From Callorhinchus milii (taxonomy: Eukaryota), in assembly GCF_018977255.1 (NCBI RefSeq), contig NW_024704745.1, forward strand, positions 41,106,001 to 41,170,000: a stretch of 64,000 nucleotides of DNA. The letters are read 5' to 3'. A program made the position numbers and the translations under genes. This document shows, piece by piece, positions 24,137-60,882 of this stretch; the stretch's first letter is position 1; the number at the start of each line of letters is the position of its first letter. Under the pieces are notes generated by a model. The model had not been told where the DNA came from. It saw only the letters and a list, made by a program, of their open reading frames with translations, and did no database searches.

Positions 24137-24481
24137 CTTTGTCCTGTCGCTGTCTCAAAGCGCTTCACAGGATATATTGTAAAATGAATCCACTGTATAT
24201 TTTGTATAATTGAGAACGTGTTAGATTTCATTGCTCTAGTTTTGTGTATACGTTAAGTAAAACCATATTAAGATGAAAACAACTGCAAATGCTGTCAATC
24301 CCAGCCCTCCCTGCACTGTCCCTTCCCAAACCAGCTCTTTCACGTGGGTGGTGTAGGAGTTCACGTGTAGGTGTTCGCTGATGCGTAAACGTTGGAAACA
24401 GTGACAGTTGTGGTCTGTGATCCCTTCCACAGCCACAGAGAGAGAGAGAGAGAGAGGTCTGCAGTGGGAGACTGGGAAACC

Positions 24482-31280: not shown

Positions 31281-31674
31281 ATGGTGGTGAAGGCGGTTTG
31301 TGTGCTGAAGGACGAAAGCCATTTCCAACGCCAGTTCCCTCCCGGCGCTGGAGACACAACTCCCGGTGTTGCTGGAGTCGTCCANNNNNNNNNNNNNNNN
31401 NNNNNNNNNNNNNNNNNNNNNNNNNNNNNNNNNNNNNNNNNNNNNNNNNNNNNNNNNNNNNNNNNNNNNNNNNNNNNNNNNNNNNNNNNNNNNNNNNNNN
31501 NNNNNNNNNNNNNNNNNNNNNNNNNNNNNNNNNNNNNNNNNCTGAGTGTTTAGTTGGGATGGATGTGCTGTGTGAGCGTCACTCCCCCCCCACTCCCCCC
31601 CCCCCCACTAACTGACTCCAGATTTAAACCGCCGGGGGTTCTGCTGTGTGTCAGCGGTCACGGTGACCCCTCTC

Positions 31675-31705
<31 letters not shown>

Positions 31706-34700
31706 GGGGTTTGCAAACCTGCAATTAAATGGCTCAATTTTTAACTCCGGTCTCCGTGGGGCGGGGAGGGGGTTTCTCTCGAAAAATAAATCCTTTTTTT
31801 TTGAATGACTCCATTTTAACGACGGCTCTGTCGCATTATTCGAATAACCGTTTTTTTTTTTGGGGGGGGGGGTGGGGGGGGGGTCGACAGAGCAGAACCC
31901 ACACCGCTTCTTCTGGCTAAGATTTCTCCTTATTGAGCAGGAATTACCAGAACATGTTCAGGTTTGTTCCCACACAACTCCCCGGTCCCTTCTCCTCACT
32001 GGAAACCATTGACCACTCCCCACTGACTCTGACAAACCTCCCTTTTTTTGCCCCTCTCTCCCCCTTCACACACACACACACAGGTCCACATAAACTATCC
32101 AGTTGTTGCCCATCGCCATGTTCTGCTTTCCTCTCCCAGGTGCTGAAGCATGTCTGCCTGTCAATTCACTCTTTCCTCTCCCAACGCTCCCAGTGTGAAT
32201 TCCTTCAGTCAAGCTTCCACCCACCCACAGCACTGAGAGGTTTGGTCAAAATGGCATCCTCCCTGTCCGTAAGCGGTAGTCAGAGCGCTCCTCGCTCTTT
32301 CTGCTGCCTTTGACACTCATCCTCCATATAAAGATAAAAGTTCACCCCTAACCTTGATGTTTGCCGACCTGTGTCTAAGACTCACGAGTCAGACATCCAA
32401 TTTGACCAAAACAAATGTCCACCAATGTTTCTAGCACATTCGCTGCTTGGCAACTTATAACATGATTGAAATCTAAATTTAACGCATTATTATCACTCCA
32501 TTCTTAGCTCTTGGGAATGTCGTCCGCAGACATGGGGTACACACCCAACTCTTATTTTTCCACCTCACTTTGTGACCCCCCAGTCCCCTGATGTTCTGTC
32601 AGTCTGCCTGTCAGACCTCAGGGGTTGGATAAGCGTGAATTTCCTTCAGCTGAACGTTGACAAGACGGAAGCCATACTCTTTGGCTCTCGTCAATGTCTT
32701 AAATCACATGGTTCTCACCTCCTCCACCTATCCGACCTCCCACTAAAACTCTCTGAATCCGTACTCAACCTAGGGGTCAGGTTCGACCCCCAATTGTCCT
32801 TCCTCCCCCCCCATCTGGTCCCTCAACAGCACCGCTTTCTTCCACCTCCGATGCATCGCCCGTCTCCGCCAATACCTCACCCCAAAAGCCGCCGAAATCC
32901 TGGTCCATGCCTTTGTCACCTCTCGGCTGGACTATTCAAATGCCCTCCTCGCCGGTCTCCCCTCCACTACCATTCATAAAATCCAGGTCATAATAATAAT
33001 AATAATAATCCTTGCATTTGATATAGCGCTTTTCACGTCGGGAGGACGTCCCAAAGCGCTTCACAGAACACACTGTAAAGTGAATTGACTGTATATTTGT
33101 GGGCGAACGCGGCAGCCAATTGCGCACAGCAATGTCCCACAAACAGTCGTAGATTGAAAATGACCAATTTTATTATTGTTTTTTTTTTGTTTTTTTGGAG
33201 GGATTATTATTAGGCGTGTGGAGTAAGGAAACTTGCCCAAGGTTTCGCCCTGCCTGGAATTGAACTCAGGTCTCTCGCTTGCAAAGCGAGTGCTCTAACC
33301 ATTGAGCTACAGGACTCATACAAAACTCTGCCGCCTGCATTCTTACCCACACCAAACTCCGCTCCCCGATTACCCCAGTCCTTGCCAGACTGCACTGGCT
33401 GCCTGTCCCAGAGAGGATCGATTTTAAGATCCTCACTCTTGCCTTCAAATCCCTCCACTCCTCTGCACGGCCCTACCTCTCTGATCTCCTCTCCCCACAC
33501 AGCAGTGCATGTTGCCTTCGCTCCACCAGGTCTGACCTCCTCTTTGTCCCCCGAATCCTCCACTCCACCATCGGCGGCCGGGTCTTCAGCCACTACGCCC
33601 TGAGACTCTGGAACTCCGTTCCTCACTCCCTTCGCCTCACCCCCTTTCTCCCTACTTTCAAGTCTCGGCTGAAGACCTTTCTTTTCAACCGCGCTTTTGG
33701 TCACCTTCTTCCCCCTCCCCCTGGCTCGGCCCCAGGATCCGTTACTGTGAAGCTCTCTGAGACGCCGTCCGGCGTGGAGGGCGCTATATGAATCCAAGTT
33801 GTTGTTTTGACTAGTTTTCTAAATGAAAATTAAATATGTTCATGGAGAATTAACTTTATAATGTATGGTGCTAACTCAAAAGAACACCATATCTAACCAC
33901 TTCTACGAGGCCACTTCTGTATGAAACTATTATCTTGCAGGAAAATGAGCCAGTGTTAATAAAAGGAAACATTTCTGGATTAGCTCCTGGAAAGCATGGG
34001 CTTCATGTTTGCACCTTTGGAAACCTTTTAAATGGTATGTAATATACACCTGTTTCATAAAAATATTCCATTACTATCTTACTGTCAATTTCAGTTCATT
34101 CCTGATTTTTCAATTTCCTAAGACAAATTGGTTTAGTTAGCATTGCATTTAGAGTAATAAGATATGCAAAAAAGTTTCATTTTCTCCTTTGAGTGCTCCA
34201 CATTTTAAGTTCTCTGATAAATGCAGGATGTCATCACATTTCCATCGCCTTGGGATGTGCTGCCGACGTGAAAAGCTCTATACCCATGTGATTTTGTACT
34301 GTATTGTAACAGTTTAAGATGGGAATTTTTCAGTGGGAAAAGCAGCAGGCAGCTCTTGTAGTGTTTTTTTTAACCAGGATGACTATGGTAAGTAATTTGA
34401 CATTTTAAATTTAGCTTACCTCAAAATAGACTCCAAGTCATATTCACTCCCAAGGCAGTAAATGGTCTAATTCCACCTGGAGCACTGTCTGCAATCCCTG
34501 TCATTGTATTAGAGTAAAAGATATCTTAATATTAGAGGAAATACACTGAGAAGCAAGTAGATTAATAGCTGTGTGTGGGCATAAATTATTGGGAGAATCT
34601 AGATAGAAGCGAAGACTCAGGGAGATCTTATTGAAATATTCAAGATCCAAAAGGCCATTTTTTAAAAAATCTTTGTGGCCAGCCAGATAATAATAATAAT

Positions 34701-37360
34701 CCTTGCATTTGATATAGCACTTTTCACATCTTCTAGATATCTCAAAGCATTTCACAGAATAAACTGTAAAGTCAATTGACTGTATATTTGTGGATGAAAC
34801 ATGCACAGCAGTGTCCCACAAACAGTCGTGGATTGAAGTGACCAATTTTATTATTTTTTTTCTTGAGGGTTTATTATCAGTCATGTGGAGTAAGGAAACT
34901 TGCCCAAAGTTTTGCTTGTGAGGCGAGTGCTCTAACCACTGAGCTACAGGTCTTCCACAGATACAAAAGATAGTCTTTTCCTACACATTATTTATGTAAT
35001 TTTGGTAAACAAAAGAATGGCTAGCCCTTTGTGTTGGACAAACCAGATGCTTAATGTCTTATTTCTCTTCGGAAACTTCTTTGTTGTTTTCCTGAATGCA
35101 AAGGAAATATTTCATAATATAATTGTTTCCAGGTCACTTCAGTTTAGGATCACATTTCAATCCATATGAGAAAAAACACGGAGGACCAGAAGATGAAGAA
35201 AGGTGAGTTTTGGATGTATAGATGGTCCAAGTAGGAACCATCATAAAAATAACAACAACAAACAACAACAACTTGGATTTATATGGCGGCCTTCACTCGG
35301 GGCATCATGGGGTAATGTCTTGGAGTGCTTAATAGTTGTGGAGTTTGACGGTAGGCCAGTTTGAGAAGGGGGTAACTATAGGCACGATGGAAGAGGAAAG
35401 TCTTTAGGTGTCATCTGGAGATGGATAAAGAGGGAGCAAGTGAAGGGATTGAGAAAAAAATAACCTTTTTGTTAATTAAAGTTGTGACCCAACATTAGAA
35501 ATATAGTCAATCAATTGCCAGTTCTTGCCAGGCTCCACTGGCTTACAACCACTGAATGGTTTGATTTCAAGATCCTCACAAATGTCTTCAAATCCTTTCA
35601 TGCCCTGACACCTTCCTACCTCGCCTACCTGCTTATTCCCCAATCTGTTGCCTTGGCTAGAATGCCTCTGTCCTCCTGCTTGCCCTACTATTGTACGGCT
35701 CTGAGATGCTACCCTGCATGAGGGGCACTATATAAATGCAAGTTATTGTTGAATTATGTCGACCATTTTTTAGTCTGCCAGGCTTTTACGCCTTGACAAG
35801 CGAGACATCTGGGTTCAATTCCAGGCAGGGCTAAACCTTGGGCAAGTTTCCTTACACCACACGCCTAATAATAATCCCTCCAAAACAAAAAAAATAATAA
35901 ATTGGTCATTTTCAATCCACGACTGTTTGTGGGACACTGCTGTGTGCAATTGGCTGCCACCTTTCGCCCACAAATATACAGTTAATTCACTTTATAGCAT
36001 ATTCTGTGAAGTGTTTTGAGACATCTAGAAGATGTGAAAAGCGCGATATAAAATGCAAGGATTATTATTATTATATTTTATAGAACCCCAGAGCCAAAAT
36101 ATTTTGGAATTTAAAGTGTTACAAAATGTTACTTCCTGATGTAATGATATATTTCTATAAATTTAGACATTTGGGTGCCAGTTAGACAGAAATTGGATAT
36201 TTTAATATTTAGTTCACTCCCACTGGTACTGATATCTGGTTAAACCTCAGTAGCAGGTCTTATTGGTGTCCTGCAGCTCAGTGGTTAGAGCATTCGCCCC
36301 GCAAGTGAGAGGACCTCGGTTCGACTCCCAGGCAGGGCAAAAAGTTGCGCAAGTTTTGTTACTCCACACACCTCTGTTTACCTTGCAGTACGTAGGTATC
36401 CGATCGTTTGTCAATTGCGGATCAATTTTCTGGGGGTAATATTCATTTAAAAAAAGAATAATAATTTGTCAGTCAATATACGACCTTTTGTGGGACACTG
36501 TTGTGCGCAATTGGGTCCCGGGTTTCACCCATAAAATATACAGTCAATTCACTTTACAGTATATTCTGTGAAGTGCTTTGAGATGGCTCGAAGACATGAT
36601 AAGGCAATATATCAAATACAATTATTATTATTATATATTTGCTACAATTTTACTATGTAATAAAACATTCAACAAGTAAACTTTGGTGTCTTATTATTTT
36701 TAATCTGCTGTAGGCACGTAGGAGACCTGGGAAATGTGATAGCTAACAAAGAAGGTGTGGCAGAGTTTCAAATACAAGATCGACTTCTCCAACTTTCCGG
36801 AGTTTTGTCCATTATTGGACGTTCTCTGGTGGTAGGTACTAAAAGTCTGCCATTTGCTCAGTAACAACAATGGTAGCGTATTGTACTTTCAACTGCAGGA
36901 TACTGCAGTTCAAATTGTGTGGAACTGCGTAGATTCTAGAAATTGCTGGGGTACTGAGGGGTTGTCTAATGCCCCTGTGATCAGTATTGAGATTTGTTCC
37001 TCCTGGCTGTTCTTTTAAACATTATTTAAAACATCTTTTAAATAATGGAAATACAAATTATTAATATAATAAATAATTGTAAATAATGTCAAATACAAAT
37101 TTGACCTACTAGAATAATTCTGTTTTAATTTTAATTAACTATATTAATATATGTGCTTGTGTAAAGATAGAAGACTATCAAGTAAATGATGAATACAAAT
37201 GTCTAGATCACTGACACTGTTTTACTTTGTAAAGATTGAGGAAAAAGAAGATGACTTGGGAAAAGCTGGAAATGAAGAAAGCCTTCTAACAGGGAATTCT
37301 GGAAAAGGTTTAGCCTGTGGAGTGATTGGTATAGCTGATGTTGTTATGAATTTAACTTGA
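31281..37360 (+). CDS. SOD1-like paralog (copy 3), 5 exons, exon 1 truncated by an assembly gap
   Basis: Exon 1 31281->31384 ([34 protein letters not shown]..., donor presumably in the N gap). Exons 33941-34034, 35133-35202, 36714-36831, 37235-37360 encode [141 protein letters not shown] at 37663 and 37680. Confidence 0.88.
31385..31541. other. Assembly gap (157 N)
   Basis: Run of N. Confidence 1.
32505..33806 (+). mobile_element. L2 3' portion in intron 1 of copy 3
   Basis: [33 protein letters not shown] and an L2 tail. Confidence 0.88.
32990..33317 (-). mobile_element. tRNA-derived SINE nested in an L2
   Basis: Same family. The L2 sequence ATCCAGGTCATA|CAAAACTCTG resumes on both sides. 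Confidence 0.92.
34687..34950 (-). mobile_element. tRNA-derived SINE, internally deleted
   Basis: Head, core and tail are all recognisable. Confidence 0.85.
35775..36633 (+). mobile_element. Two tRNA-derived SINE copies (about 35775-36075 and 36267-36633)
   Basis: Same head, core and tail motifs. Confidence 0.85.
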
Positions 37361-40799: not shown

Positions 40800-41060
40800 A
40801 AATCCAGAAGTGGCCCAATATGACGTTGCCGACTATTGGTCGGTCTTTAAAGCGGAAGCAACGTTTGCGGGTTTACATTGAAACATCTTAAAATTCGGCG
40901 CCCGTCCAATGTGACCCAAACCCGCCCAATCGGAAGTGAACCCGCCCAATCTGCTGGTGTGCGCATGCGTCGGGGAAAAAAAAAAGGCGGCAGCGGATGA
41001 CGCATGCGCGCCGTGTGGCTGGCGATCGGCCTTTGGCAGTGAAGGCGGAGCTGGGAAACC
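40800..41060 (+). promoter_or_regulatory. CpG-island promoter of paralog copy 4
   Basis: CCCG(C/T)CCAAT at 40901, 40921 and 40941. ETS-like CGGAAGTG at 40931. NRF1-like TGCGCATGCG at 40960 and CGCATGCGC at 41001. No TATA box seen. Confidence 0.75.
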
Positions 41061-44000
41061 ATGATAGCCACCGGGAAGTGTGTCCTCCACCAGAGCTCCG
41101 ACAGCACCGGTGTGAGCGGCGTATCGGGAACCGTGATTTTCGAGTGGGACGTAAGTAACAGTACCGGCGGCGTTGCCGGTAAACACACGGCCGCACCTCA
41201 CTCACTCACAATGTCGTCGCTCTCGAAATTACCGCCTAAACTCAAGAGCCGCGGTTGGAAGCGCACGGCGGTGGGTGTTGACGCCGCGCGAGCGCTTCCA
41301 TTGACGCACGAGAAATAAACCCGAGCAGCGACCCGCCGCGGCCACGGTAACGACTGGCCGTTGTGAAGCTGTGGCTGCCATCAGGGGGAGCCGTCGATGG
41401 CAGTTTGTTTTAACACCAAAGAGAGACTGTGTTTGTGCCTCGAAGGACCTGCGGGTGTGTGTCCGAGTGAGAGTTACGGCTGTACGTCATCCCGCATCCC
41501 GAGCAGCCGTACACCGCCCTCCCGCACCTCCTCATAACCGTCATGGCCGCCGCGACCTCCCCCACTGCGGGAGGCCAGGACACGGCCCCATGTTGTGGCA
41601 GGGACCAAAGATTGCGGGGCGTAATTGTGGAGGATCAGTTTGGTCACTCACTCCGTGACTGTTTGTGGGGCACTGCTGTGCGCAATTGGCTGCCACGTCC
41701 AGCCCACAATATACACAGTCACTCCACTGTACAGTATGTTCTGTGAAGCGCTTTGAGACGTGATGAGACGTTGTATCAAATGCAAGGACTATTATTATCA
41801 GTTGGGCCAAAGGGGCCATCTTCACTCAAACTGATTTTGTGGTCAGCCTGCACAAGAACAACAACAACAACAGCATTTACATAGCGCCCTCCATGCCAGG
41901 CGGCGTCCCAGAGCGCTAAACAATGATGGAGCCCGATGCCGAGCCAGCGGGAGGGGGAGAGGGAAGGTGACCACAGGCAAGGGCAAAGACGGAGGTCTTC
42001 AGGCGCAAACTGAAAATGGGGAAAGAGGGGGCAAGGCGAAGGGATTGAGGGAGGGAGTTCCATAGCTTCGGGCTGTAGTGACTTGTAGTGTCTGAAGGCA
42101 TGGTGGAGCGGAGGATTCGAGGGACAAGGAGGAGGCCGGAGCTAGTAGAGCGGAGGCAACGGGTAGGGCTGTGAGGATAGAGGAGGTTGGAGAGATAGGG
42201 GTGCCAAGGCGTGAAGGGATTTAAACACTAGAGTGAGGATCTTGAACTCAATCCACTCTGTGACAAGGAGCCAATGGAGGTCACAAGAGAAATTGACATG
42301 AATAAGGAAGGTAGGTCACTGTAGCCCATCTGATCTCATTCTTCCAGAACATCCACTTGAATGTCAACAACAACTTACATTTATTATAGCACCCTTCACG
42401 TGGGATAGTATCTTGGAGCCCTTAACAGTGGTGGAGCTTAACTCCGGCCTTGCATCAACAGCATTCAGCTTTTTTAAAAAAACAAGTTCAGTCTCCTGGC
42501 CTCAACCTGTTCCTGGCCGATACTCCTCCAGATAAAATTGCTTGTTTCCTTTCATGGCTGTTTGTGGGACATTGTTGTGTAAAGATTGGTTGCTGTGTTC
42601 GCCTACAAATACATTGCCTACACTTTACAGTAAAATCCTGTGAATTGTTTTGAGGTGTTTTGACGCTGTATTAAGGCACTAATATCAAATGGAAGAATGA
42701 TTTTTATTAATCTCTGGGTAAATAATAATTCCTGTCATTTGCCATTTGCAACATTGAACCTGTGTCTTCTTGTGTCCTCGGTTTAACATCTCACCTGAAA
42801 GACATCACCTCCAACAATGTAGCCGCCCGCAGCTCGTATCGACAGTCCTATTTCACGTAGACATCATTTTCTGTAAAATAACAAAACATAAACTATTTAT
42901 TTGTTCACCTTCCCTTTTCTGTACTCGAGTCCGTATCCCTTTGGTTTAGATTTTTTTGACCATGTTACATGACAAGTTATAAAGGTTTGATTTAACTCTT
43001 TTTTACCAAACTTTTTAGGAAACTGAAGAAGTGTTAATAAAAGGAACCATTAGCGGCTTGTCTCCTGGAAAGCATGGCCTTCATGTTTGCTCCTTTGGAA
43101 ACATTACTGATGGTATACTTCAATCTTGTGTTTCCAAATAACAGATCTTGTTTGATAATCAACAACTATAATTACAGTATATGAATCTTACCTAAAATAT
43201 GAACTAATCTGAATTTTTAGTTATAGTTAAATGAATTACTGGATTTGATTGGATTTTTCAAAGTAATCTTTGTTAACATGCAAGAAATTATGAACTGTTA
43301 AGCAGATAACCCAGGGGTCTCAAATGGCTTTAATGTCGATAAATATAATGTCATGCATATCAGAACAGGCGATGCATATCTCCTGTAGCTTTGAAGTCCT
43401 GTAGCTTATTGGTTAGAGCACTCGCCTCGCAAGCGAGAGGACCTGGATTTGATTCCCAGTCAGGACGAAACATTGGGCAAGTTTCCTTATTCCACACGCC
43501 TCTGTTTCATCTAGCAGTAAGTAGGAACCCGGTTGTTAGTTGAATGGCAGATGGATTTTCTGGGGGTAATAATTCCTGACTTAAAAAAAAAATTTGGTAA
43601 CTCAATCCACGACTGTTTGTGGGACACTGCTGGGTGCGATTTGCTTTTGCCACAAAAGACCTTCCTTTTCGACCGTGTCTCCGGTCATTTCTGCTCGACG
43701 TCAGGCTCCGCCACTGTCAAGCACTCTAGGATCCTACCTTGGGTGAGGGGTGCTATATAAATGCAAGTTGTTGTGAAAGCATGGTGTGTCAGATGCCTGA
43801 CTAACCCCCCAAAAAGTGTATGGATTTTTTTTGAAGCATCATGATTGCTCCCTTCAATGTCTGAAATGTGGTACTGCAGCCTATTGGACCATGGGTGGTT
43901 GCTTGGAACAAAATGAGATACAGTAATTGGCTCATCAAGCCCACTCCTTGTTCAGATCATGCATGAATGTTATTATAATCTACAACCCACTCACTATTAT

Positions 44001-47000
44001 CTTTGGGAGATATTCTGTATAGAAAATCCTCAATCACCAAAGGTGAAGCAAAAACTCCCAATATTCATCATCTCCACTGCTTCTCATATATACACCTCCT
44101 GTCCCATAATCCTGATTTCTTGTTCCCATTTTCTTCATAAATATATGCAATGTCATTGTTGAACAGAATCACATCATTATGGTGACTCCCTATATGGACA
44201 ATTATTATTTTATGCACTCAACTGTTAGGTAGGTTGAGGATAGCTCTAGTTGTGCTGAGTACTTTTACTTCCCTATTTGCATATTTTGGAAATGTTAGAA
44301 TTACGTACTCTATAATTGCATACTGTTTTGTTTCTCTTTATATTACTGGAAAAAATGATAAGGTCCATTATTTTTATCTCTTAGGTTATTTCCATTCAGG
44401 AGATCATTATAACCCATGTGATAAAAAACATGGTGGACCACAAGATGAAGAGAGGTGAGATTTAGATTTAATTATGGTATTTTAAGCGTTAAACACCTTG
44501 ACGAGCAAATTTAAGATTTGTTTACCTCTCTGTCTTAGAACAATACTATAAATCTGCAAAATAATATTGGTAAATGCAGTCAAATGAAAATTCTTTCACA
44601 ACAACAAAATTACATTCGTATATCGCCTTTCACGTCAGGACAGACAGCGTTTTCACTATATGAAATTGAAAATTTGTTCAACTGCATTTGGTGATGAATA
44701 AAGACGTGGATACATTTCATTAATTATTCAGGGTATTTAAGTAAATGAGTTTTCCAAGTAAATCTTTTTTCCCCCAGATTGGCCATGGGGACTTTAATTT
44801 TCTGTTTTCCCAGCACCAGAAGAGATGTATAGGGTATATTGTGTGGGAGCTGGAAATAGGGCAAACTTGATGGCCCCTGGGCCTTTTTGCTCTTTTTAGT
44901 TATGTATGCAGCAAATATGTGTGCATGTATCTTTCTGTTGTTTCTTAATCTGAAAGTGTTTTTATTTAAATAATTTTAGAACCAATTTCTCCAGTGCCGG
45001 AGCTATTTCCAGCAGAGGCATGATACCCAAAATTGTCTCCTGTGCTGTAAATCTTCTGTGATTGCTATGAAATTAATTCCATCATTAATGCCATCAAAAC
45101 TGGGCCCAATGGAGAAAATTTGCATGTATTTTTGCTCAATAAATTTGGCTCCTTGTACGCTTTGGAGACAATTACTGTGTCAATTACTATGGTTCAAGCA
45201 GATCTGCACTTGTAATATATTCCCACCAGCCAGAAACATACATTTTCAGAAGAGAAGGATGTAATTTAGCCTATTCCGTCTACCACAATGTGTATTGTGT
45301 TTTTGGTTTGTTGGATGTCTGACACAAGCAGGAACCCATCATTGTACTTAAGGTATCCAAGTTCTATGCATCCCACCTACACATAGAAATGCTTGTGTAT
45401 TGGAATGGAATCACACTGTCTCCCTTGGAAGATCGCATCCTTCTTACCTAATTCCAGAGAGTATAAGACCCAGGCTGGCAAACTACAATATTGCCACCTT
45501 GTTACAAATTTCACAACTAGCTGAGATTTACCTCTTTTGAGGTCCCCCTGCTTAGTCTGTAATCTAATTCCTTAAACTCTTTTTTTAAATATGAATCCTC
45601 TTTTCTATATTATTGGTTGCAGAATAAACTGCAGAGATGAATGTCAGTGTTTGTTTTCCTGTCCTATACTTTTGTTTTAATTTTCAATATCTTGTAAAAA
45701 TTATTGATTACGGCAACAGTGATTGATAACCTTCTGATTGGGTATATTGAAAGTATTGGAATAGTATAAATCTTTATCCCCAGTATCTGATTTTTAATCT
45801 GAGGACATATCCATATTTACAACATAACTTCAACAACATACAGCAAAATTTGCAGAGCACTCTTGTTTATGTCTAGTTTTATGAATTTATTATAACTCTT
45901 TTTAATCTACTCTAGACATGTAGGTGACCTTGGAAATGTGGAAGCGAGTGATTCAGGTGTGGCTGAGTTTCAAATGCATGATCGACTACTCCGTCTGGCA
46001 GGAAATTATTCAGTAATTGGACGTACTTTGGTGGTAAATATTGTGTTCCAGCAGCCACAATTCATTAAATGTCAGACTCCTAACAAGATGATTGCCCATG
46101 CAAAAATCTTAGTCTGGATTGTTTTTTTCAAATTGAATGTTTAGGTCTTACTAGTTTTTAGTTTTTAGGTCTTACTAGCTGAATGTTTTGCTGGGATAGA
46201 TTTTCTTTTCAGATGCCAGGACCAATTTCTGGGAATAGTACACAATCAAACTATTTAACTCTCATCCAGTTTTCCATAATATACTTCAGTGTATTTATCC
46301 CTAAATCTAATAATTGACTGTATAATCATGACATTTTGGATGGTTAATAGCCAATAACCTTAACACGAAGTTAGAGGGAGTATTTGAGTTACCAGCAGGC
46401 AGGACTGGCACAAAGTGTTCAGCGAAGCCAACAACAACTTATATAGAGACCCTCATGCAGGATAGCATTTATATTGAGACCCTCATGCAGGATAGCATCC
46501 CAAAGCCAACCTCGTATCAAATACACTTACTTGATTGCTGATCTCAATGCACACATCTTGGAGATTAAGTCATAGCCTGAGACAATTTGCTACAGACACA
46601 AATGCTACAATTTGTATCTGTATTTGCTTACAAATACACAGTTCTCCATTTCACAGTAATTCCTATGAAGCGCTTTGTGACATTCTTCCGATGTGTGCAA
46701 TTCACCCACAAAATATACAGTCAATTCACTTTACAGTGTATTCTGTGAAGCGCTTTGAGACATGTCAAAAACGTGATAAGTAGCTATATCAAATGAAAGG
46801 ATTATAATTATTCAGCTCAACGTGCGCAAAACTGAGGCCCTCCTGATTGGCTCGCGTCAGCGCCTCCGCACCTCAGGCGCTGACAGCATCAGCATCCAGG
46901 GCTGCACTCTCCACCTCTCAAAGCCAATCAGGGACCTCTGCGTTCTGTTCGACCCTGAGCTGTCCTTTCTTCCTCATATCCGCGCCACAACTGGCACCGC

Positions 47001-48788
47001 CTTCCATCACCACCGAAACATCGCCAGACTACGGCACTACCTCATCCCTCACGCTGCTGAAACTCTGGTCCACGCCTTTATCACCTCAAGGCTGGAGTAT
47101 GGGAACTCTCTCCTCGCCGGCCTTCCCTCCACAAGCTGCAGGTCATTCAGAACTCTGCAGCTCGTGTACTGTCCCGCACCAGGCTTCGCGACCACATCAC
47201 TTCCACCCTCGCTCGCCTCCACTGGCTCCCCATCCCCCAGAGGATCGAATTCAAGATCCTCATCCTCACCTACAAGGCCATTCACGGCTTTGCTCCCTCC
47301 TACCTCTCCGACCTACTATCCCCCTACCTACCTGCCCGTACCCTCTGTTCCTCTGGTTCCGGTCTGCTCCACATCCCCCGCCCCAACCGCCCTACCATCG
47401 GTGGCCGGGCCTTCAGCCTCTGAGCCCCGAGGCTCTGGAACTCCATCCCCCAGTGCCTTCGCCGCCTCCTCCCTTTCCTCCTTCAAGGCCAGTCTCAAGA
47501 CCTTTCTCTTTGACCGTGCCTTCAGCTCCCCTCTCGACTCTCTCTCTATCCCCTCCTCGCTCCCTCCCTTCCCTCCCCTCACCCTGACCATTTCCCCCCT
47601 GCTCGGGTACCGACCCAACTGTACAGCGCCTTGGGACGTCCTCCCGACGTGAAAGGCGCTCTATAAATGGAATCTTGTTGTTATAACAATCCTGAATAAT
47701 TTTCAATTAGGTGGATTGATGAGAGGTTTGATTTTTGAACTACCTGTAGGTTCTTGTTCCACCAGCTGGAGTGGTAGTTTCTTACACACATTTTTACTAA
47801 AAATATTTCTGTAGCATTTCCGATTCTCTTGTCCTTATTTTCAAGAAATTAATCTTATGTTGCTGATTCATATTTGTACATATTTTGTACAAAACTTATT
47901 TGAATCCAAATTTTCTAAACTATATCTGAAGTACCTTTATCCAGCTCTGTCGTGGTACTCCCTTCTAAAGAGAGAAAGATTCCAGAACAAAGGTAGGTGT
48001 GTGCTAGGTTTTGGCTCACATATCAAGGTTTGCTGATTTAGTGTCCGAGAAGATCCAATCTTTCATCAGAGCTCTATTCCTTAAATTCTATTTTGTTGAA
48101 CAATAAGACATTATCAATAGGGTAAAACTAACCTGTCTCACGGCGGACTAACCCCAGCTCATGTTCACTATTAGTCACTGAAGTAATAACCTGCCACTGG
48201 ACTTCCTACTACAATTGAACATCGATTTTGAATTAGGAAGATCAAAACCAATGCTCAAATGTGGTTCCACTACATCCACATTGAATTTTGAAACTGCCAG
48301 GGATGTTACACTCTTAACTGTATATTCCAACATTTTGCTTTTTTTTATAACTATTTCAGAATTAGTGACCATCCGACTAATACCTTAAGCTCTCCCTTCT
48401 GTTGTGCTACCATTAGGATATTTCCATTCTGTATATAGACCACACTACCCTTTCTTCTCCATAATCTCATACATTTTCATTCTTTGTATTAAACTATATC
48501 TACCACCTTTATGTCCATATATCCAGAAAGCCTAGAAGGCTCCAATAGATATCCTTATTTTAGTAACCACTTAAAACTCTTGTGTTGATAGTTAAAGCTA
48601 CAAGTGCTGATATCTTTGTTTTACATTTGTTAAAGGTGACTGAAAACGAAGATGACTTGGGCAAAGGTGGAGATGAACAGAGCCTTACAACAGGAAATGC
48701 TGGAAAAGGTTTAGCTTGGGGAATAATTGGAATAGTTAGTGAATTTTGCCCAGCAAGTGAAGATTTAACACAAAAATCTAAAGAATGA
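41061..48788 (+). CDS. SOD1-like paralog (copy 4), 5 exons, 174 aa
   Basis: Exons 41061-41150, 43019-43112, 44385-44454, 45916-46033, 48636-48788, all GT-AG. Protein [174 protein letters not shown]. Confidence 0.92.
41857..42280 (-). mobile_element. L2 3' fragment in intron 1 of copy 4
   Basis: [27 protein letters not shown], with a (CAA)n tail on the plus strand. Confidence 0.85.
46812..47682 (+). mobile_element. L2 3' portion, young subfamily, in intron 4 of copy 4
   Basis: [34 protein letters not shown]. Closely similar to 56932-57805. Confidence 0.92.
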
Positions 48789-51600: not shown

Positions 51601-52400
51601 CGCCTCAGCCCGTGTGTGAAGTCACGAGGGCCGGTCTCCCGCCCCGCAAGAGTTGACACTGCGCGTGCGCGCGCCTTTACACGGCTCTGCGCGGTCGGTG
51701 GCTGTCGCCTCGTCGGGCGGTTCGCGGTCGTGAAATTGGGGAATTATGACGACTACGAAGGCCGTGTGTTTGCTGAGGGGTCACTCCTCCGTGGTCGGGA
51801 CGTGTACTTTCAAAGCAATTGTGAGTCAGGCCACGACTGTTAACAGTCATAGTAATGCCCGGGGCTGGGCGGGGGCTTCGTGTCCATAACGGAGATGGAC
51901 GCGGAGGGCAGACACGTGGCCCTTCGTTTGTTTCACTTGAAGCGCATGTGTTTGTAGCGCAAGAGCCGCCATCTTCCTAACTCCCGGTGTGTGTGTGTGT
52001 GTGGGGTGTGGGTGTGGTTCTCCTGCACGTTCCAGCTTCTTGCACGGAATCTCCCCAACTTGCCTTTTTTAAAAAAAAAGTCGGATTTTTTTTTCAGCGA
52101 AAACGTTTTGCATTGAACGCGCGGTTACACGGCGTATTGATGAGCTGCGGCCGACACCGCCAGGTCGGGTTTTAACTGACCTCAATGGTACAGTGTGTGG
52201 TGTGGTGTGTGTGTGTGTGTGTTGAACGTTGTGCACTGTTGTTCACTGCTCGAGCTCCTGTGTCGGGAGGAGCCGCCGCTTCAGAGGCCGTTATAACCGT
52301 TGATGTGAACCCGCGCGCCCGCGGCCTGGTTTTAACGGCCACCGTGGCGGGGGTTGGAGCCCGCGCCGCTCGGGCCAACCCGGTCTTTATATCACCACCG
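51590..52400 (+). promoter_or_regulatory. CpG island around exon 1 of paralog copy 5
   Basis: CpG-dense, with GC boxes (CCCGCC), an NRF1-like GCGCGTGCGC at 51661 and several YAACKG motifs in intron 1. Confidence 0.65.
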
Positions 52401-55400
52401 CCCTGTGATCGTAATAAATGACCACTTTTCGTTTGGATGGGCTGTGGCTCGTGACTTCTCCGGTCACCACACCAGCCGTGCGAGTGGCAGTGCAGTCGGT
52501 GTCCCCATCTATGGAGACAAACACAATAGGCAATTTGGACGCACAAACCATGAGGTTAGTCAGTGACTTAATTTTTTCTCGGCCACTTAAGACAGGTTGA
52601 AGCACTGGTCGACAGCTATTTGGCGAGCGGTTTAACTATTGGGGCTCGGGCGCCAGTCCGGCTTGGTCGCTGTGCTGTGGAAATTGTTGCATTTAGCTAC
52701 AAAATACACTTTAGTGCAGTCTTTGAAGCACTTTGAAATGGGTTGTGGAAGGTACTGTATCAAATGCAAAGATAATTATTGTAACCTCACCAAACTTTGA
52801 CACCTCTTGGCCAAATTGCTAGAGTGAGCTGGTTGAAATGATAATCGATGTAATGCGTAGATTTCCATGTTAAGTTATATTCTATCTGGTCACTGAGTGG
52901 CTTTTATGACAGAATTTTGTTTACAAAGCTCTGGTTCTAAGAAGGCCAAACCCAATAACTTTTCCATGGAATTATTTTGTAGGCAAATGGACACGTGGTA
53001 ATTCAAGGAGAAATCAGTGGACTGACTCCTGGAAAGCATGGAATCCATATTCATTTATATGGAGACGTTTCTGACGGTATGGACAATGTACCTATCGTAT
53101 TATGTATACATACAACCATCGTGTGAACAGTACTATTAGGGATCTGATTTAATAACTCCTAGCATGTAAAGGAAGGACATCCTTTATAAATACCCACTTG
53201 TTTTATTTTGCCTGAATTGGGTTGGTACTTTTGAGAAAACCTACTGTTTTCACCACATATTGAAAGATATTTATTTCCTCTTCCAACTCGGATATTGGCT
53301 GTGGACAGACTTGACCCTCAATGACATTTATACCACTGAAGGTTAATGCAATTCTTCCAATCAGAGATGCGGAATAGGGTCTTTAGCAGCTTATTGAGGA
53401 TGGGGAAAAGTAAACAAAAGCTTCTGTTCAGTAATTCCTGCTGGAAGATGCATATAAGTGGATATTGTCTGGAAATATGATTCGGGGCTGAAATGCAACA
53501 ATAGTCAAATAGCCCACCTTTGCCACAAACATCACTACCAAATTGTTTATAGTGAATTAATTTGGGCCACCACATTCCCCACCCCGCCCCCTGAAAAAAA
53601 ATGTAACATGTTGGTATTGTTGATGTTCATGCAAATTACTGGTTTGTTGAAGACATTTCTGAGGTTGCTATTAAGTAACAAAGACGCATTTTCCTGAGAT
53701 ACAAAACCATTTAAGTGTAAGTACTGTATTTGTTTTTAGGCTGTGCCAGTGTAGGACCTCATTACAACCCCTGTAACGAAACACACGGTGCACCACAAGA
53801 TAAAAAGAGGTGAGATTTCCTTAGGCAGTAATGTCCAAAGTGAAGAATGCAGTTCATTACTTTGATGTTTAACACTGCCTTTGTATTTAACAATGATCCA
53901 TATCATTTCATAGTACTGACTTGTACCAATAACGGAAGTTATCGAGAGCTTCAAAATTATTTTTTCCCATCATTAAATCTAATTGAACCCTGATTTTTAG
54001 CTTGCGATAATAGGCTTCAATAATATTTCATTGATTAGTTATCTCATAAAGGGAAGGAAAAGTCAAGTTATTATTGAAGCGTATTATCCCATGATTAAAA
54101 ATCACAGGATCGCTTACTGTCAAAATTAATCCCCAGCTCTATTTAATTGTAAAACATAGTTTGGCCGCTTCATAATACCACTTATCAGGGCTTTGTTTTG
54201 CAGAGTTAACCACATTTATATATCCAAATCTTTTTGAGTTAGACAAGCTAGTTAATCAACAATATCTTAGATGTCCGAGGACCTACCAGCCATGTCTGCT
54301 CTCCACCATTTCAGTCTTAGAAAGTTACCATTTACCTTTCTTTCCCCCAACCCCTTCCCTATTGGAAAATTAAGTTGTAGCCAATGGATAAGTAATACAG
54401 ATTCTCTTATTTTGAGAATCTTTAGGTTTGTCTATCGCTCTGTTAAACCTCTTCGTTGATGCCAAAGATTAGTAACTTGTGATCTGGAAATGACTCCATT
54501 TATTTAAATAAGTGGCTGCCAAAGATGGGCTTGGAAGTCAAAAAGAGCTGTCTGACCTATTAAACGCACAGTACAAGCAAGATTGTTGTAATCAACAGAT
54601 GTGTAGTTGGGTTGGTGAGCTCTGGTTTAGCTTCCAATTGAATTAAATAAAACTATATTGTTCCAGAAAACTGTCCTGAGTATACTCTAGAAATGTATTG
54701 CCTTTACAACAGCATTAGCAACAATAACTTGCATTTAAATAGCACCCTCTAAGTCGGGTGGTTTCTCAGAGCGCTTAACAATGGTGGAGGCTGAGCCAGG
54801 GGGAGGGGGAAGCTGACTGTAGGTGTGGTCGAAGAGGAAGGTCTTCAGGTGCAACCTGAAGATGGGGAAAGAGGGGGCGAAGCGTAGAAGTTGATGTGGA
54901 GTTCCAAAGTTCAGGGCATAGTAGCTGAAGGCATGGCCGCCGTTCCCGGAGCGGAGGATTTGGGGGACACGGAGGAGGCCAGACCCAGGAGAGCGGAGGC
55001 AGCGGATATTGCTGTGGGGAGAGAGGAGGTTAGAGAGATGGGGGGGTGTCAAGGAATGGAGGTGGTGTGCGGTGGTGTAGCCCTTATCTCAAGGACACCA
55101 CTTGCCCTATCCTCCTCCTCCTCTGGCTCTTTCCCCTCTTTTGAGCACCTCACCCTCTCCCACCCCTCCCATCTCTCACTTAAAATCCTCTTCCTCTTCC
55201 GGCCCCCTAAAACCTCTCCCATCTTCATCTCTGATATTTCTACCCTCCTAACATCTCTCTGCTCTGATCGCCTCATCATCCTGGGCAACTTCAACCTGCA
55301 CTTCACCCCCTCCTGCTCCATCTCCTCGGACTTCTCCCTCCTCCTCGCTCAACCTCTCCCTCCACATCAACTCCGCCGCTCACATTCATGACCACCCACT

Positions 55401-58400
55401 CGATTTGGTGATCACCCGGGGCCTCAGTGTCTCGGATGTCACCATTACCGATAAGGCCGTCTCCGATCACCACTTCATCTCCTTCACCACGTCCACCCCC
55501 CTCCCTATCTCCACCAGACCCACCACCATCTTCTACCGCCCCTGGAAGAAGTTACCCCCACAATCCCTAACTGCTGCCTTGGAGTCCTCTAAACTCCTCT
55601 CCCTCTGGCCTTCAACCCTCACTGACCCCTCTTCTGCTCTCACCCTCCTCCACAACACTCTCTCCTCCACACTCGACACTCTTGCCCCCATCACCTCCTG
55701 TACTGTCTCTTATTCTCACTCCTCCCCCTGGTTCAACACCCACCTCCGCTCACTGAAGAGCCAGGTGCGGGCTGCTGAACACACCTGCTTCAAATCTGGC
55801 CTAACGGTCCACCGGCAAATCTGGCTGGACCTCCTCAAAATCTACCCCTCCACTCTAGTCTTGGCCAAGTCGTCCTTCTACTCCAGGATAATCCTGGGGG
55901 AGAAGAACACCCCCAGACTTTTGTTCTCTACCACATCCCGACTCCTCCGTTTCCCCCCCCCCCCACCATCCCGCGCAGGTCATCTCCTCCAACCTTCACT
56001 GCGAGGAGATGCTGGATTTCTTTGAATGCAAAATCAAGGGAATTTGGTCCGCGGTCACTGCCCCTCCAACTTCCCCCCACCCTCAACCCCCTCCCTCCCA
56101 CACTCCGACTCCTACCCATCCTCCCCTATACACCTTCGAACCCGTTTCCCCACCCTCTGTCACCAAACTCATCCTGTCCTTGAAACCCACCACCTGCTCC
56201 CTGGACCCCATCCCCACTCCACTCCTTATCTCTCAGCTCCACCTCCTTGCCCCACTTCTCACAGACACCATCAACCTGATCCTCTCCTCTGGCTCCGTTC
56301 CCATTCCCCTCAAAACTGCCACCATCACTCCCACGTTGAAAATACCCTCCCTTGATGCGTCGCATATATCAAACTACCGGCCCATCTCCAACCTCCCCTT
56401 CCTGTCCAAGGTTCTCAAAAGAGTCGTCGCCTCCCAGCTGCGCTCTTTCCTCTCCACCCACTCACTTTTCGAACCCCTCCATAGCACGGAAACCGCCCTG
56501 GTCAAGGTCACCAATGACATCTTGACCATCTGCGACCAGGGCTCCCTCTGCCTCCTCGTCTTCCTCGACCTATCAGCCACATTCGATACGATTGACCACT
56601 CTATCCTCCTCCACCTCAACCTTCAAGGCCCTGTCCTTGAGTGGTTTAGGTCCTACCGCTCCCACCGTCTTCATTTTGTCTCTGCAAACGGCTTCTCCTC
56701 CAGCCCCCGCACTGTCTCGTGCGGTGTCCCTCAGGGCTCTGTCCTCAGTCCCCTCCTCTTCACCCTCTACATGCTCCCCCTTGGTGACATCATCCGCAGA
56801 CATGGAGTTAACTTCCACATGTATGCGGATGACACCCAACTCTACCTTTCCTCGTCTACCCTCAACTCCACGACCACCGATGTCCTGACAGCTGCCTGTC
56901 CGACATCGAGTCCTGGACGAGAGACAACTTTCTTCAGCTCAACGTGTGCAAAACTGAGGCCCTCCTGATTGGCTCGTGTCAGCGCCTCTGCACCTCAGGC
57001 GCTGACAGCATCAGCATTCAAGGCTGCACTCTCCACCTCTCAAAGCCGTCAGGAACCTCGGGGTTCTGTTCGACCCTGAGCTGTCCTTTCTTCCTCATAT
57101 CTGCACCACAACTGGCACCGCCTTCCATCACCTCTGGAACATCGCCAGACTACGGCACTACCTCACCCCTCACGCGGCTGAAACTCGGGTCCACGCCTTT
57201 ATCACCTCAAGGCTGGACTACGGGAACTCTCTCCTCGTCGGCCTTCCGGCACCGCCCTCCACAAGCTGCAGGTCATTCAGAACTCTGCAGCTCGTGTACT
57301 GTCCCGCACCAGGCTTCGCAACCACATCACTCCCACCCTCGCTCGCCTCCACTGGCTCCCCATCCCCCAGAGGATCGAATTCAAGATACTCATCCTCACC
57401 TACAAGGCCATTCACGGCCTTGCACCCTCCTACCTCTCCGACTTACTATCCCCCTACTTATCTGCCCGTACCCTCCATTCCTCTGGCTCCGGTCTGCTCC
57501 ACATCCCCCACCATAACCGCCCTACCATCGGTGGCCGGGCCTTCAGCCTCTCAACCCCCAGGCTCTGGAACTCCATCCCCCAGTGCCTTCGCTGCCTCCT
57601 CCCTTTCCTCCTTCAAGGCCGGTCTCAAGACCTTTCTCTTTGACCGTGCCTTCAGCTCCTCTCGACTCTCTACCCCCTCCTCGCTCCCTCCCTTCCCTCC
57701 CCTCACCCTGATCATTTCCCCCTTCTCGGGTCCTGACCCAACTGTCCAGCGCCTTGGGACGTCCTCCCGACATGAAAGGCGCTCTATAAATGCAATCTTC
57801 TTGTTGTGGAGGGATTTATAGACTAGAATGAGGATCTTGGTTGATCCGCTCTGTGACAGAGAGCCAGTGGAGTTTGGCAAGAACTGGAGTAATCGGGGTA
57901 TGAAGTTTGGTGCGGGTGAGAATGTGGGCAGCGGAGTTTTAAGTGAGCTGAATTTTGTGAATAGTGGAGGACGGGAGACAGTTGAGGAGGGCAGTGTGGT
58001 GGAGGTGGAAGAAAGTGGTGCTGGTCAGGGATTGGATGTGGGGGAGGAAGTTGCACATGGGTTCGAAGAGTTTTAAGGACAGTTCGGGTAGGTTGACGAG
58101 GTCGGAACCATGGGACAGAAGATATTGGTGGGAGCCAAAGAGTATGGCTTCCGTCTTGTTGTTTTTCCGTCTTTACTACTTGTTCTGCGTCTCCCAGTCT
58201 ATATGAAAATTAAAAGATCCCATTATAATCACATTGCTTTTGCTATGTGCTTCCCTGATTTCTATACCTCCCCCCCCACACACACACACTATATCACTAC
58301 TATCTGGAGGTCTGTGGCCAACTCCTACCAGAGTCTTACCTCCTTTGCTTTTCTTTAATTCTGCCCATAGTGTTTCCATGGCTTGATTACCCTTACTGAA

Positions 58401-60882
58401 ACCTTTTGTTTCTACTGCTGTAATTGTCTTCATCAGTCTTGCTATTACTTTCTAAAGATCTTATAGCCTGGAATATTTACTCTCAGTCATGCCCAGCTTG
58501 TAGCCAGGTCTCTGTAATGGCTACCACATCATAGCTTTTTGAGCCCGCATGAAACCGACCACCTGCTCCCTCGACCCCTCCCTACCCCTCTCCTTAACTC
58601 CCATCTGCACCTCCTTGCCCCTCTATTCACAGACATCATAAATGCCCTGTCCACTGGCACTGATCCCACCCCTCTAAAAACGGTCGTCATCACTCCTAAC
58701 CTCCACACCTCAATTTTGTTGTTTTTAATATGAATTTGTGTTTCTAACTCACTTGTTTTATTCATTATGCTACATGCATTTATGTACAGAACTCTTACTC
58801 TGGTAACTGCCCATATGCCCTGACGGTGTTTTTCTCATACTTTTTGACTTGTCACACTTCTTGTGATTACGTCCTATAACCTTTTTTCTTCCCATTGACC
58901 TTGCCAATAACCATAGGCTGCAGATCATCCAGAAAAATAGGAAGTAACTTGCCATGTCATGGCTGTTTGTGAGAGATTGCTGCATGTACATTGGATATTG
59001 CATTTCCTACAAACAATGTTTAAAGGATTTGTTCTGAATTGCCTGCCTTATTAGTTGATAGTATTGTGTTTTTCTAGCGTTGCAGGAAATTGTTTTATCA
59101 AATTGAATCCCTTCTCCTAGATTGATGGCATTCAGTGAGAATGAATTCACTTTCATAAGACAAGATCTTTGATTTAGAGAATATTTGGGTAGAAAATGTT
59201 TTTCAGTAGAGTTAGGGTTCCGCTACATTTGCCCTTCCCTTTAATTTTTTTGTGAGAAAATTGTATATTTTGCCCTGCCTTATTTCAAAGGGATATATCC
59301 CTCAAATATTTTTCTGTAGTAGGTGAAGTGTAACCTATGTTCACAGAATGCTAATGTAATAGAAACTGAAATCTTAAGTAAGCTCATGGGAATATCACAG
59401 ACGTTGTCTAGGTATACACTATTGTATTATCAGTACTTATGACTGAAGAAAAATTAAGATATTGTACTCGATTTTAGCTGTCTAAATTGTTTCAATCTAT
59501 GTAGACATGTAGGTGATCTGGGCAATGTAGAAGCTAATGAAAATGGCGTTGCCATATTTGAATTAGAAGATCGACTTCTGCGCCTAACAGGAAAACATAA
59601 TATAATTGGACGATCAGTAGTAGTAAGTATTAAAATTTTTAATTTTGGGCACTCACTGTGTATTGTCAATCCATAGAATCATGACATGTTTATGTGGCCC
59701 ATAAAGCCATGCAATGTTTACGTGGGTATTTTGTTCAACCTCTGGGGAGAAGTCAGGCTTGGCTGTGACTCCCGCTAAAGTTAAATAGCTGCCAACATTC
59801 ACTGCCAAGGATCATCTATGATGGCTTGGGAGGGGTACTGAGGACAACCAGCATTGCGGAACTGCACCCCAGCAACAGGAGAACAGCAGAGAGGCAAATG
59901 TCAGTGGGGACAAAATTAAAAAAATAATTAGTCATGCACTAAAAATGTTGGTAACATGAAAAATGAACTGTTGAGTTAGGTATTGATCCATTGCATCAAT
60001 AATGACAGATGTAGAACTGAACTTGTGTGAAGTGCTTTGAGACATCCTCCCCACATTAAAAGTGCGAAATAAATGTAAGTTGTTGCTTATTGCCACTTTG
60101 TCTAGATTGTACACCTTCTGACATTAACATTATCTTATTTCGAGATTGTAACGATCAAAGATCAAAAAGTGAGATAAGTTATGAATATAATGAATTTTAT
60201 AAAAATAGTCTGGTGAGTGAGCTTACACTGAAATTGTCTGAGGGATTTCTGTTGTGCTGCTTAAGGTTCAACCATGGAGGAAAAGCCACAAATGATCCAC
60301 TATTTAGCAGCAACATGCTTTTAAAATCAACAGAAAGTTTGTTTTTCCCCTCTGGGAAAGGGCAGCCATTGGGATTCATTTTGATTTGTTTTAGAAGGGG
60401 GTGAATTCTCTGGTAGTTGAGAATAAGTTCAGACCTGTTAAAGGTGGGAAAAGTTTGATGGGAGACACTGGTGCAGTTACAGTGTGGTAGGAATAATAGA
60501 ATCATAGAATCAAATAAAAACATACAATTTTTTTTTATCTCACTAGCTTCACTATACACTGAAATCCCTGAATAATTGCAACCATATATTTAAAACTATG
60601 CAGCTCTTAATTTGCCTCAAATAATGTAAATCAACATTGCATTCCATAGGGTTTTTTAAAAAATAAGTAATTATTCTGAGATTGTTTGATAACTTCATAA
60701 CTTTGTTGATATTTTATTCTAAAATCTTTTAGTGGAATATAGAGATACTGGTGTATCTTTTTTCCTTTATAAAGGTTCATCAGAATGAAGATGACTTGGG
60801 TAAAGGTAACAATGAAGAAACCCACATAACAGGAAATGTTGGAGAAGGAATTGCCTGGGGTATAATTGGAATAGATAACTAA
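51746..60882 (+). CDS. SOD1-like paralog (copy 5), 5 exons, 154 aa
   Basis: Exons 51746-51820, 52983-53076, 53740-53809, 59505-59622, 60775-60882, all GT-AG. Protein [160 protein letters not shown] at 60985 and 61641. Confidence 0.93.
54722..55060 (-). mobile_element. L2 3' fragment abutting the long L2 in opposite orientation
   Basis: Minus-strand translation includes [11 protein letters not shown], typical of the L2 ORF2 C-terminus. Confidence 0.8.
55065..57805 (+). mobile_element. L2-clade LINE, 5'-truncated and frameshifted (endonuclease remnant, reverse transcriptase, 3' tail), in intron 3 of copy 5
   Basis: Fragments [17 protein letters not shown] (APE endonuclease), then [35 protein letters not shown] and YADD (56822-56833). 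Ends in the L2 tail GGGACGTCCTCCCGACATGAAAGGCGCT...TTGTTG. Boundaries approximate. Confidence 0.93.

Follow-up and report, generated by a model that had tools for sequence, protein, structure and literature searches.

What use does a vertebrate have for a superoxide dismutase (SOD) whose zinc site is kept and whose copper site appears to be broken? The question is raised by a stretch of 64,000 nucleotides from the chimaera Callorhinchus milii (assembly GCF_018977255.1, contig NW_024704745.1, positions 41,106,001 to 41,170,000, forward strand), here called the window, where scanning all six frames for motifs revealed a + strand tandem of five SOD1-type genes (copies 1 to 5; positions below are those of the window unless stated otherwise). 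In vertebrates SOD1 is generally regarded as an enzyme under strong constraint and encoded by a single gene copy. The fourth gene, copy 4, is a SOD1 duplicate that has been kept across the cartilaginous fishes and is listed in catshark sperm, and we tentatively propose for it there a non-catalytic role in binding or structure, as a protein that lacks copper and is stabilised by zinc, a reading to which we give slightly less than an even chance.

Copy 4 occupies positions 41061-48788. With exon boundaries of the array genes set by splice signals, it is an intact gene of five exons, whose introns are all GT..AG and whose 174-residue reading frame has no internal stop. Exons 2 to 4 have the same lengths (94, 70 and 118) as in canonical copy 1, to which the product is 56% identical. 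A search with exon 5 showed the product to be identical to the annotated C. milii superoxide dismutase isoform X1 (P0001 = XP_007902252 = UniProt V9LAH8). Around the ATG the GC content is 0.57 and the observed/expected CpG ratio 1.31. Residue numbers are those of human SOD1 unless stated otherwise, assigned via alignment to lemur SOD1 and to human SOD1 from the PDB, and the roles of SOD1 positions were taken from PMC13017621 and PMC6383938. The coding exons are as follows.

41061..41150, + strand: exon 1 (coding part), with strand 1, loop I carrying a 6-residue insertion, strand 2 and a GTAAGT donor, within a CpG island
43019..43112, + strand: exon 2, with His46 retained, H48C and D52N
44385..44454, + strand: exon 3, with C57Y, S59H, P62D, the Zn ligands H63 and H71, and an invariant new Cys67 (HYNPC)
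45916..46033, + strand: exon 4, with the Zn ligands H80 and D83, a copy-4-specific segment, and the first catshark-shared peptide (residues 112-121)
48636..48788, + strand: exon 5 (coding part), with H120T, R143G, C146W and a 14-residue tail

At 44400, 15 nt into exon 3, there is another in-frame AG acceptor; its use would remove residues 57-61, including His59, and no sign of such use was seen.

The initial annotation had called copy 4 a Zn-only-type paralog, and at the level of sequence this description is borne out. The five replacements that it listed (H48C, H120T, C57Y, C146W and R143G) are all present in the gene model, as are the zinc ligands H63, H71, H80 and D83, which are moreover found in 17/17 copy-4 rows. 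His46 is also retained in the chimaera, and three further changes (D52N, S59H and P62D) and a net charge of -14 versus -3 come in addition to what had been noted. T120, G143 and W146 occur in all 15 complete copy-4 rows (two catshark rows whose C-termini are aberrant enter the tree described below but not the exon-5 counts), and Cys57 is left in one row of 17, so that the Cys57-Cys146 disulfide is lost. Of the copper ligands H46, H48, H63 and H120, chimaera copy 4 holds two and the elasmobranch orthologs only His63, position 46 being Tyr in 16/16 elasmobranch rows and His in the chimaera alone. All 13 outgroup rows, on the other hand, hold H46, H48, C57, H120, R143 and C146. In domain II of human CCS, replacement at the equivalent of His120 alone ends copper binding and activity (PMC13017621). 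Because this one position decides copper binding there, the case for an inactive copy 4 is strong: it very probably has no meaningful dismutase activity, and its residues make it a likely zinc-bound pseudoenzyme.

The fold appears to have outlived the active site. PF00080 is annotated on the protein (P0001; precomputed), and the AlphaFold2 model, for which a 70-sequence alignment was the input, is an eight-stranded barrel (predicted local distance difference test score, pLDDT, 83.7; predicted template modelling score, pTM, 0.80) whose top Foldseek match is human SOD1 (TM 0.81/0.92, root-mean-square deviation 1.8 A, E 3e-19). Locally, pLDDT is 60 in the insertion block, 68-75 in residues 51-70 and below 50 in the tail, which is predicted to be disordered. 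The dimer-face residues are retained as well (Gly51 and Gly114 in 17/17 rows, Gly150 in 15/15 and Ile151 in 14/15 complete rows). Strand 1 begins at residue 3 of the model, and by inspection an N-terminal signal peptide of the SOD3 type is absent. Copy 4 is a single domain of 157-174 residues lacking the ATX1-like domain I and CXC domain III of CCS, and the SOD1 Gly150 position is Gly in every complete row, not Ala, which is a CCS feature (PMC6383938). Cu-only SOD / CSRP proteins keep the copper site and have lost the zinc site and loop VII (PMC13017621), whereas copy 4 is their opposite, with the zinc site kept, the copper site lost and loop VII at full length. Judged by these residues and domains, copy 4 is not a SOD1 enzyme, CCS, a Cu-only SOD or SOD3.

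Sequence searches and cluster look-ups show that sharks, rays and skates carry the same paralog set as the chimaera. In an IQ-TREE analysis of 76 proteins, from which isoform duplicates, partial models and read-through models were left out and which was rooted at the midpoint only, the copy-4 clade comprises 17 rows from chimaera, sharks and rays with support of 100/98; the copy-5 clade has 16 rows (98/81) and the copy-2 clade seven (100/99), the chimaera being the first branch in each of the three. Copies 3 and 4 group together at 91/89. Copy 3 by itself is weak, the chimaera sequence joining elasmobranch copy 3 at 55/11, and the canonical SOD1 proteins of cartilaginous and bony vertebrates separate at 99/96. 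Because the chimaera branches first within these clades, the array is older than the chimaera-elasmobranch split, which dates to about 400-420 million years ago. Arg143 is absent from all four derived copies and Trp146 is present in all but chimaera copy 3; this common pattern suggests, given a midpoint-rooted tree, that the loss happened once, early on, and that further duplications came later. No bony-vertebrate ortholog of copy 4 was found among the best 120 of 3,443 profile matches, and of 221 proteins, 71 carry the Gly143/Trp146 signature, all of them chondrichthyan, with 31 rows unparsed at the motif.

Chimaera-to-elasmobranch identity is 0.70-0.75 for copy 4 (mean 0.73, n=14), 0.69-0.73 for canonical SOD1 (mean 0.71, n=9) and 59-64% for copies 2, 3 and 5. 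Over the 15 complete copy-4 rows 88 columns are invariant, and 16 of those residues are absent from all 23 canonical rows; the copy-4-only invariants include, in copy-4 numbering, I2-A3-T4, W29, E34, N58, C73, H106, R111, A113, N115, T126, K148, G149 and W152. By the pattern of its sequence, copy 4 is not a decaying gene.

A link to sperm comes from a proteomic study in which catshark semen was searched against UniProt Chordata, the sperm having been pelleted and washed (PMC11083954). V9LAH8 appears once in Table S2 of that study, in the spermatozoa sheet (535 proteins) and not in the seminal plasma sheet (305 proteins), with means of 280,299 and 182,025 in spermatozoa and no difference between the groups. 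The accessible text of the paper, searched for SOD terms, does not discuss it. A search of Table S2 for accessions of copies 2, 3 and 5, and of bamboo shark copy 4, gave no match, though their peptides could be listed there under cloudy catshark accessions. In PMC8455134, 12 of the 24 supplements gave no match. Two fully tryptic peptides of V9LAH8, residues 112-121 and 122-134 (the latter with T120), are also found in catshark copy-4 models, and catshark copies 1 and 5 share none; within the set of 221 proteins the two turn up in 12 and 27 rows, every one of which bears the copy-4 signature. Because the shared peptides are copy-4-specific, the catshark copy-4 ortholog is the likely source of the V9LAH8 listing, and copy 4 is probably present in sperm, which is a statement of presence and not of specificity. 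P11418 is presumably blue shark SOD1. It is listed in the sperm table at 46,921 and 16,641, areas of different proteins not being strictly comparable, and the other SOD of that table, A0A401PG28, is not assignable to a copy.

The remaining members of the array are these.

14064..20959, + strand: copy 1, canonical SOD1 with every metal ligand, Arg143 and both disulfide cysteines
24482..30021, + strand: copy 2, a derived paralog, the chimaera copy being the most degenerate (long branch, 0.63)
31281..37360, + strand: copy 3, sister paralog of copy 4, its exon 1 readable in part within the window
51746..60882, + strand: copy 5, a derived paralog with Cys67, R143G and C146W in common with copy 4

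A genome search with exon 5 gave four matches among 11 candidates, all inside the window; copy 2 was missed, so distant copies can escape such a search. No further SOD copy was found in the next 20 kb (best match E 0.78). Identical bases, nine in number (TGGGAAACC), precede the ATG in copies 2 and 4 (window 24473-24484 and 41052-41063), and copy 5 is similar. In chimaera copy 2, His46, His71 and His80 are lost and exon 3 is longer by a 3-residue insertion, while 6/6 shark copy-2 rows hold all seven metal ligands; the chimaera gene may have undergone lineage-specific decay or a change of function. Copy-3 and copy-4 exons are joined in catshark models P0009, P0134 and P0135 and in sawshark models P0007 and P0141, one of which is a 262-residue two-domain protein; these may be read-through transcripts or annotation merges. 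Annotated SOD1 isoforms of chimaera, ray and catshark (P0067, P0044, P0064 and P0177) carry a similar insert of 17 residues after exon 1, basic and containing Trp and Cys, at the place of copy 1 intron 1 (window 14139-16762), which suggests a conserved alternative exon, known from the annotated isoforms rather than from the window sequence. A minus-strand open frame of 290 codons (at about 6170-7042 of locus L005), Pro-rich and then rich in Arg, Glu and Asp, has its end facing the array; it may correspond to the final exon of SCAF4, a gene that usually lies downstream of SOD1. At window 11700-13700, shortly before the start of SOD1, a GC-rich tandem array that is open in several frames lies within a fragment resembling a long interspersed nuclear element.

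The cysteines of copy 4 had drawn the attention of the initial annotation, and the new ones are where it placed them, at residues 54 (H48C), 73 (HYNPC, human position 67) and 162 (tail) of the protein; with two SOD1 cysteines lost, the total is four against three in copy 1. It had further argued that Cys48, shared with copy 3 within a 12-nt match (CTTCATGTTTGC, which is present in both), survived the divergence of the two genes and is functional. The survival is upheld: in exon 2, 5.7 of 21.3 synonymous sites differ between copies 3 and 4 (27%, synonymous divergence, dS, 0.33), and shark orthologs of both genes have the residue, so Cys48 is ancestral to the pair. Over all four exons dS between these copies is 0.50, and it is 0.53-0.91 for other copy pairs. 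A recent gene conversion of exon 2 is ruled out by this dS and by match lengths, since the longest identical run is 17 nt for copies 3-4 versus 16 nt for copies 3-5 and 4-5, and blastn gives only one match at exon 2, which is at 82% and consists of just the exon. Between the two genes, likeness is highest in exons 2 and 5 (0.81 and 0.79), and given this likeness and the 55/11 support of copy 3, an ancient partial conversion may have taken place. The claim of function stands only in part, in that recent conversion is rejected but conservation among orthologs is only partial: Cys48 is found in 11/17 copy-4 rows (the chimaera and 10/10 sharks) and is replaced by Ser or Leu in 6/6 batoids (rays and skates), an absence for which one loss event is enough. 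In copy 3, both Cys48 and His46 are present in 13/13 rows. Cys48 is therefore dispensable for the role of copy 4 and may, to judge by its invariance, matter in copy 3. Copy 3 also keeps His at 57/58; its loop I is about 14 residues longer than that of SOD1 and bears in elasmobranchs a conserved acidic motif containing His and Pro. For a rebuilt metal site, copy 3 is a better candidate than copy 4.

Cys67 is the new cysteine whose invariance suggests a function (17/17 copy-4 and 16/16 copy-5 rows, 33/33 together). Because it has no co-conserved partner in copy 4, it is likely to be a free thiol. It occurs without Cys48 in batoids and copy 5, and Cys48 occurs without it in copy 3, so the two are no obligate pair and a Cys48-Cys67 disulfide is ruled out by the want of co-conservation. 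In copy 5, all 16 rows have in addition a Cys at 57 (8) or 59 (8), and His120 is Asn in seven shark rows; a shifted disulfide is possible in that paralog. The C-terminal tail and its cysteine, also pointed out earlier, are real in the chimaera but confined to it (1/14 rows, in a sample with only one holocephalan species), and with pLDDT below 50 the tail is ruled out as a feature of the family. The loop insertion is likewise present, the distance from the strand-1 Cys to the strand-2 Phe being 19 residues versus 13 in copy 1, but it is not conserved, ranging from 16 to 20 in length and varying in composition, with an acidic character in elasmobranchs.

How, then, might such a protein work? As we picture it, zinc would occupy the H63/H71/H80/D83 site and hold the predicted SOD1 barrel, with the bulky Tyr57 and Trp146 packing in place of the disulfide; if these aromatics do replace it, maturation would need neither copper nor CCS. 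The retained Gly51/Gly114/Gly150/Ile151 face would permit dimerisation. Selection would have acted on a new surface, made up of the acidic strand 2-3 hairpin FEWDETEEV, the basic DRLLRLAG loop and the unpaired Cys67, and these features may bind copy 4, or link it by a disulfide, to a sperm structure. Cys48 would be what remains of a remodelled metal pocket, which copy 3 still has. Several points weigh against this proposal. The copper-free, inactive, zinc-bound and dimeric state is deduced from the sequence, and the structural role, with a partner that is only putative, from conservation and analogy. The loop of residues 51-70, at pLDDT 68-75, leaves the Tyr57-Trp146 packing putative, and position 57 is Tyr in only 13/17 copy-4 rows. 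The sperm evidence consists of a protein listing, not peptide lists, from one study of one species that used a cross-species database search, with a search engine that assigns "a direct ortholog" (PMC11083954); a listing without a somatic proteome comparison makes no claim of enrichment, and a pellet can carry other cells. A scaffold or structural role may be the main function of copy 4, a view for which we would put the chances just short of even. Doubtful as yet is a broader scenario, in which one early loss of Arg143 and the disulfide gave rise to a four-gene non-catalytic SOD1 family, kept for ~400 million years as a structural or signalling module of the germ line, with copy 4 as a zinc-stabilised, Cys67-cross-linked sperm component that would pair with its sister copies or with SOD1 via the old dimer face.

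Other explanations must be set beside this one. Copy 4 could be a regulator of SOD1, pairing with it by the dimer face or trapping CCS in the manner of poxviral pseudo-SODs and so tuning superoxide in germ cells. The kept Gly51, Gly114, Gly150 and Ile151 and the location in one array with SOD1 are in keeping with such a role, copy 4 cannot form the disulfide whose formation frees CCS (PMC6383938), and leporipoxvirus pseudo-SODs do sequester CCS (PMC7605207). Against it, the GDXT motif, which makes many of the CCS contacts and whose Asp52 is the salt-bridge partner of CCS Arg104/Arg232 (PMC6383938), has become GNXT/S/V in 17/17 rows with loss of that Asp, Phe50 is Leu or Ser in 14/17 rows, two residues that take part in the CCS cycle, Cys57 and Arg143, have been lost, and most copy-4-specific invariants sit away from the CCS and dimer positions. 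We consider a regulator unlikely. Rather improbable is the idea that Cys48 is a ligand in a rebuilt metal or redox pocket (made up of His46, Cys48, His63 and a newly gained His at 57-59), which would bind zinc or Cu(I) or sense oxidants. Of the 19 sequences in which His46 and Cys48 occur together, 18 have a His at 57, 58 or 59, and no Tyr46 sequence does; chimaera copy 4 carries His46, Cys48, His59 and Asp62, and Cys48 is constant in copy 3. This pattern fits a putative pocket that was retained in copy 3 and chimaera copy 4 and dropped in elasmobranch copy 4, but it is one of residues and not of geometry, the 19 sequences are relatives and isoforms rather than independent events, and within copy 4 the set is found only in the chimaera, the elasmobranchs with their Tyr46 and the batoids without Cys48 being highly conserved nonetheless.

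Nor does the retained zinc site by itself make a strong case for a zinc store or buffer of spermatids and sperm, that is, an acidic protein holding zinc and handing it over. The invariant ligands, a net charge of -10 to -15 in 14/15 complete rows (versus -3 and -4 in two canonical SOD1 proteins) and the listing of V9LAH8 in sperm all accord with it, but one zinc, buried in a protein of about 160 residues, makes for little storage capacity, and a storage role leaves the 88 invariant columns unexplained, so we regard it as improbable. Residual catalysis, as a weak or unusual copper-using dismutase or peroxidase, could appeal to the His46 and His63 of chimaera copy 4, to the Cys48 and His59 gained near the old site and to the name superoxide dismutase in databases; with one copper ligand of four and no Arg143 in the elasmobranch orthologs, it is very improbable. 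That copy 4 is a duplicate in decay, or an artefact of assembly or annotation, might be suspected from the loss of five catalytic or structural residues and the aberrant C-termini of two catshark models, but this suspicion is largely refuted by the open frame and canonical splice sites, the 17 ortholog rows in a species-like tree and a conservation on par with SOD1.

A SOD1 pseudoenzyme array that spans a vertebrate class, with one member that matches the enzyme in conservation and is listed in a sperm proteome, suggests that vertebrates use this fold for something other than catalysis. In the open literature searched, subscription papers being outside its scope, we found no paper on these chondrichthyan SOD1 paralogs, and a 2026 review of SOD variants (PMC13017621) names three eukaryotic families, among which chondrichthyan SOD1 pseudoenzymes do not figure in the accessible portion. 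What is new here, as far as the accessible sources go, is the listing of V9LAH8 in catshark spermatozoa together with the copy-4-specific shared peptides. Because databases name copy 4-type proteins superoxide dismutase, antioxidant gene counts in sharks and "SOD" calls in proteomics can lump inactive copies together with active ones. Apparent folding without copper and disulfide makes it possible to examine in natural proteins what stabilises the immature form of SOD1, which is linked to amyotrophic lateral sclerosis (ALS). If the broader scenario is true, the four-gene family would supply naturally occurring counterparts, stable in their fold, of the SOD1 state without copper and disulfide that misfolds in ALS.

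How does copy 4 compare with known systems? Mammalian GPx4 capsule protein and Drosophila S-LAPs are enzyme folds reused as non-catalytic sperm components, unrelated in fold and thus comparable by analogy only. To vertebrate SOD1 (PF00080), copy 4 is tied by its five-exon layout, exon lengths, identity to copy 1, predicted barrel, four zinc ligands and dimer-face glycines; unlike SOD1, it lacks His48, His120, Arg143, Cys57 and Cys146 (and His46 outside the chimaera), is far more acidic, and has a longer loop I and the new Cys67. Copper-free SOD folds are themselves already known, from CCS domain II, leporipoxvirus decoys and Drosophila Sodq. CCS domain II likewise has a SOD1-like fold with an intact zinc site and a copper site broken at the His120 position (PMC13017621), but copy 4 stands alone as a 174-residue domain without domains I and III, has Gly150 in place of the destabilising Ala231 of CCS (PMC6383938), lacks the disulfide that human CCS domain II retains, and groups with the SOD1 duplicates of the array. 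The pseudo-SODs of the leporipoxviruses (myxoma and Shope fibroma virus) are also stand-alone SOD1 homologs and are catalytically dead (PMC7605207), whereas copy 4, compared with these CCS decoys by description only, is a host gene kept over a vertebrate class, with Asp52 changed to Asn. Drosophila Sodesque (Sodq, CG5948) is, like copy 4, a lineage-restricted Cu/Zn SOD paralog without residues essential for catalysis (PMC1847502), but Sodq evolves fast and carries a signal peptide, whereas copy 4 changes slowly and starts directly at strand 1.

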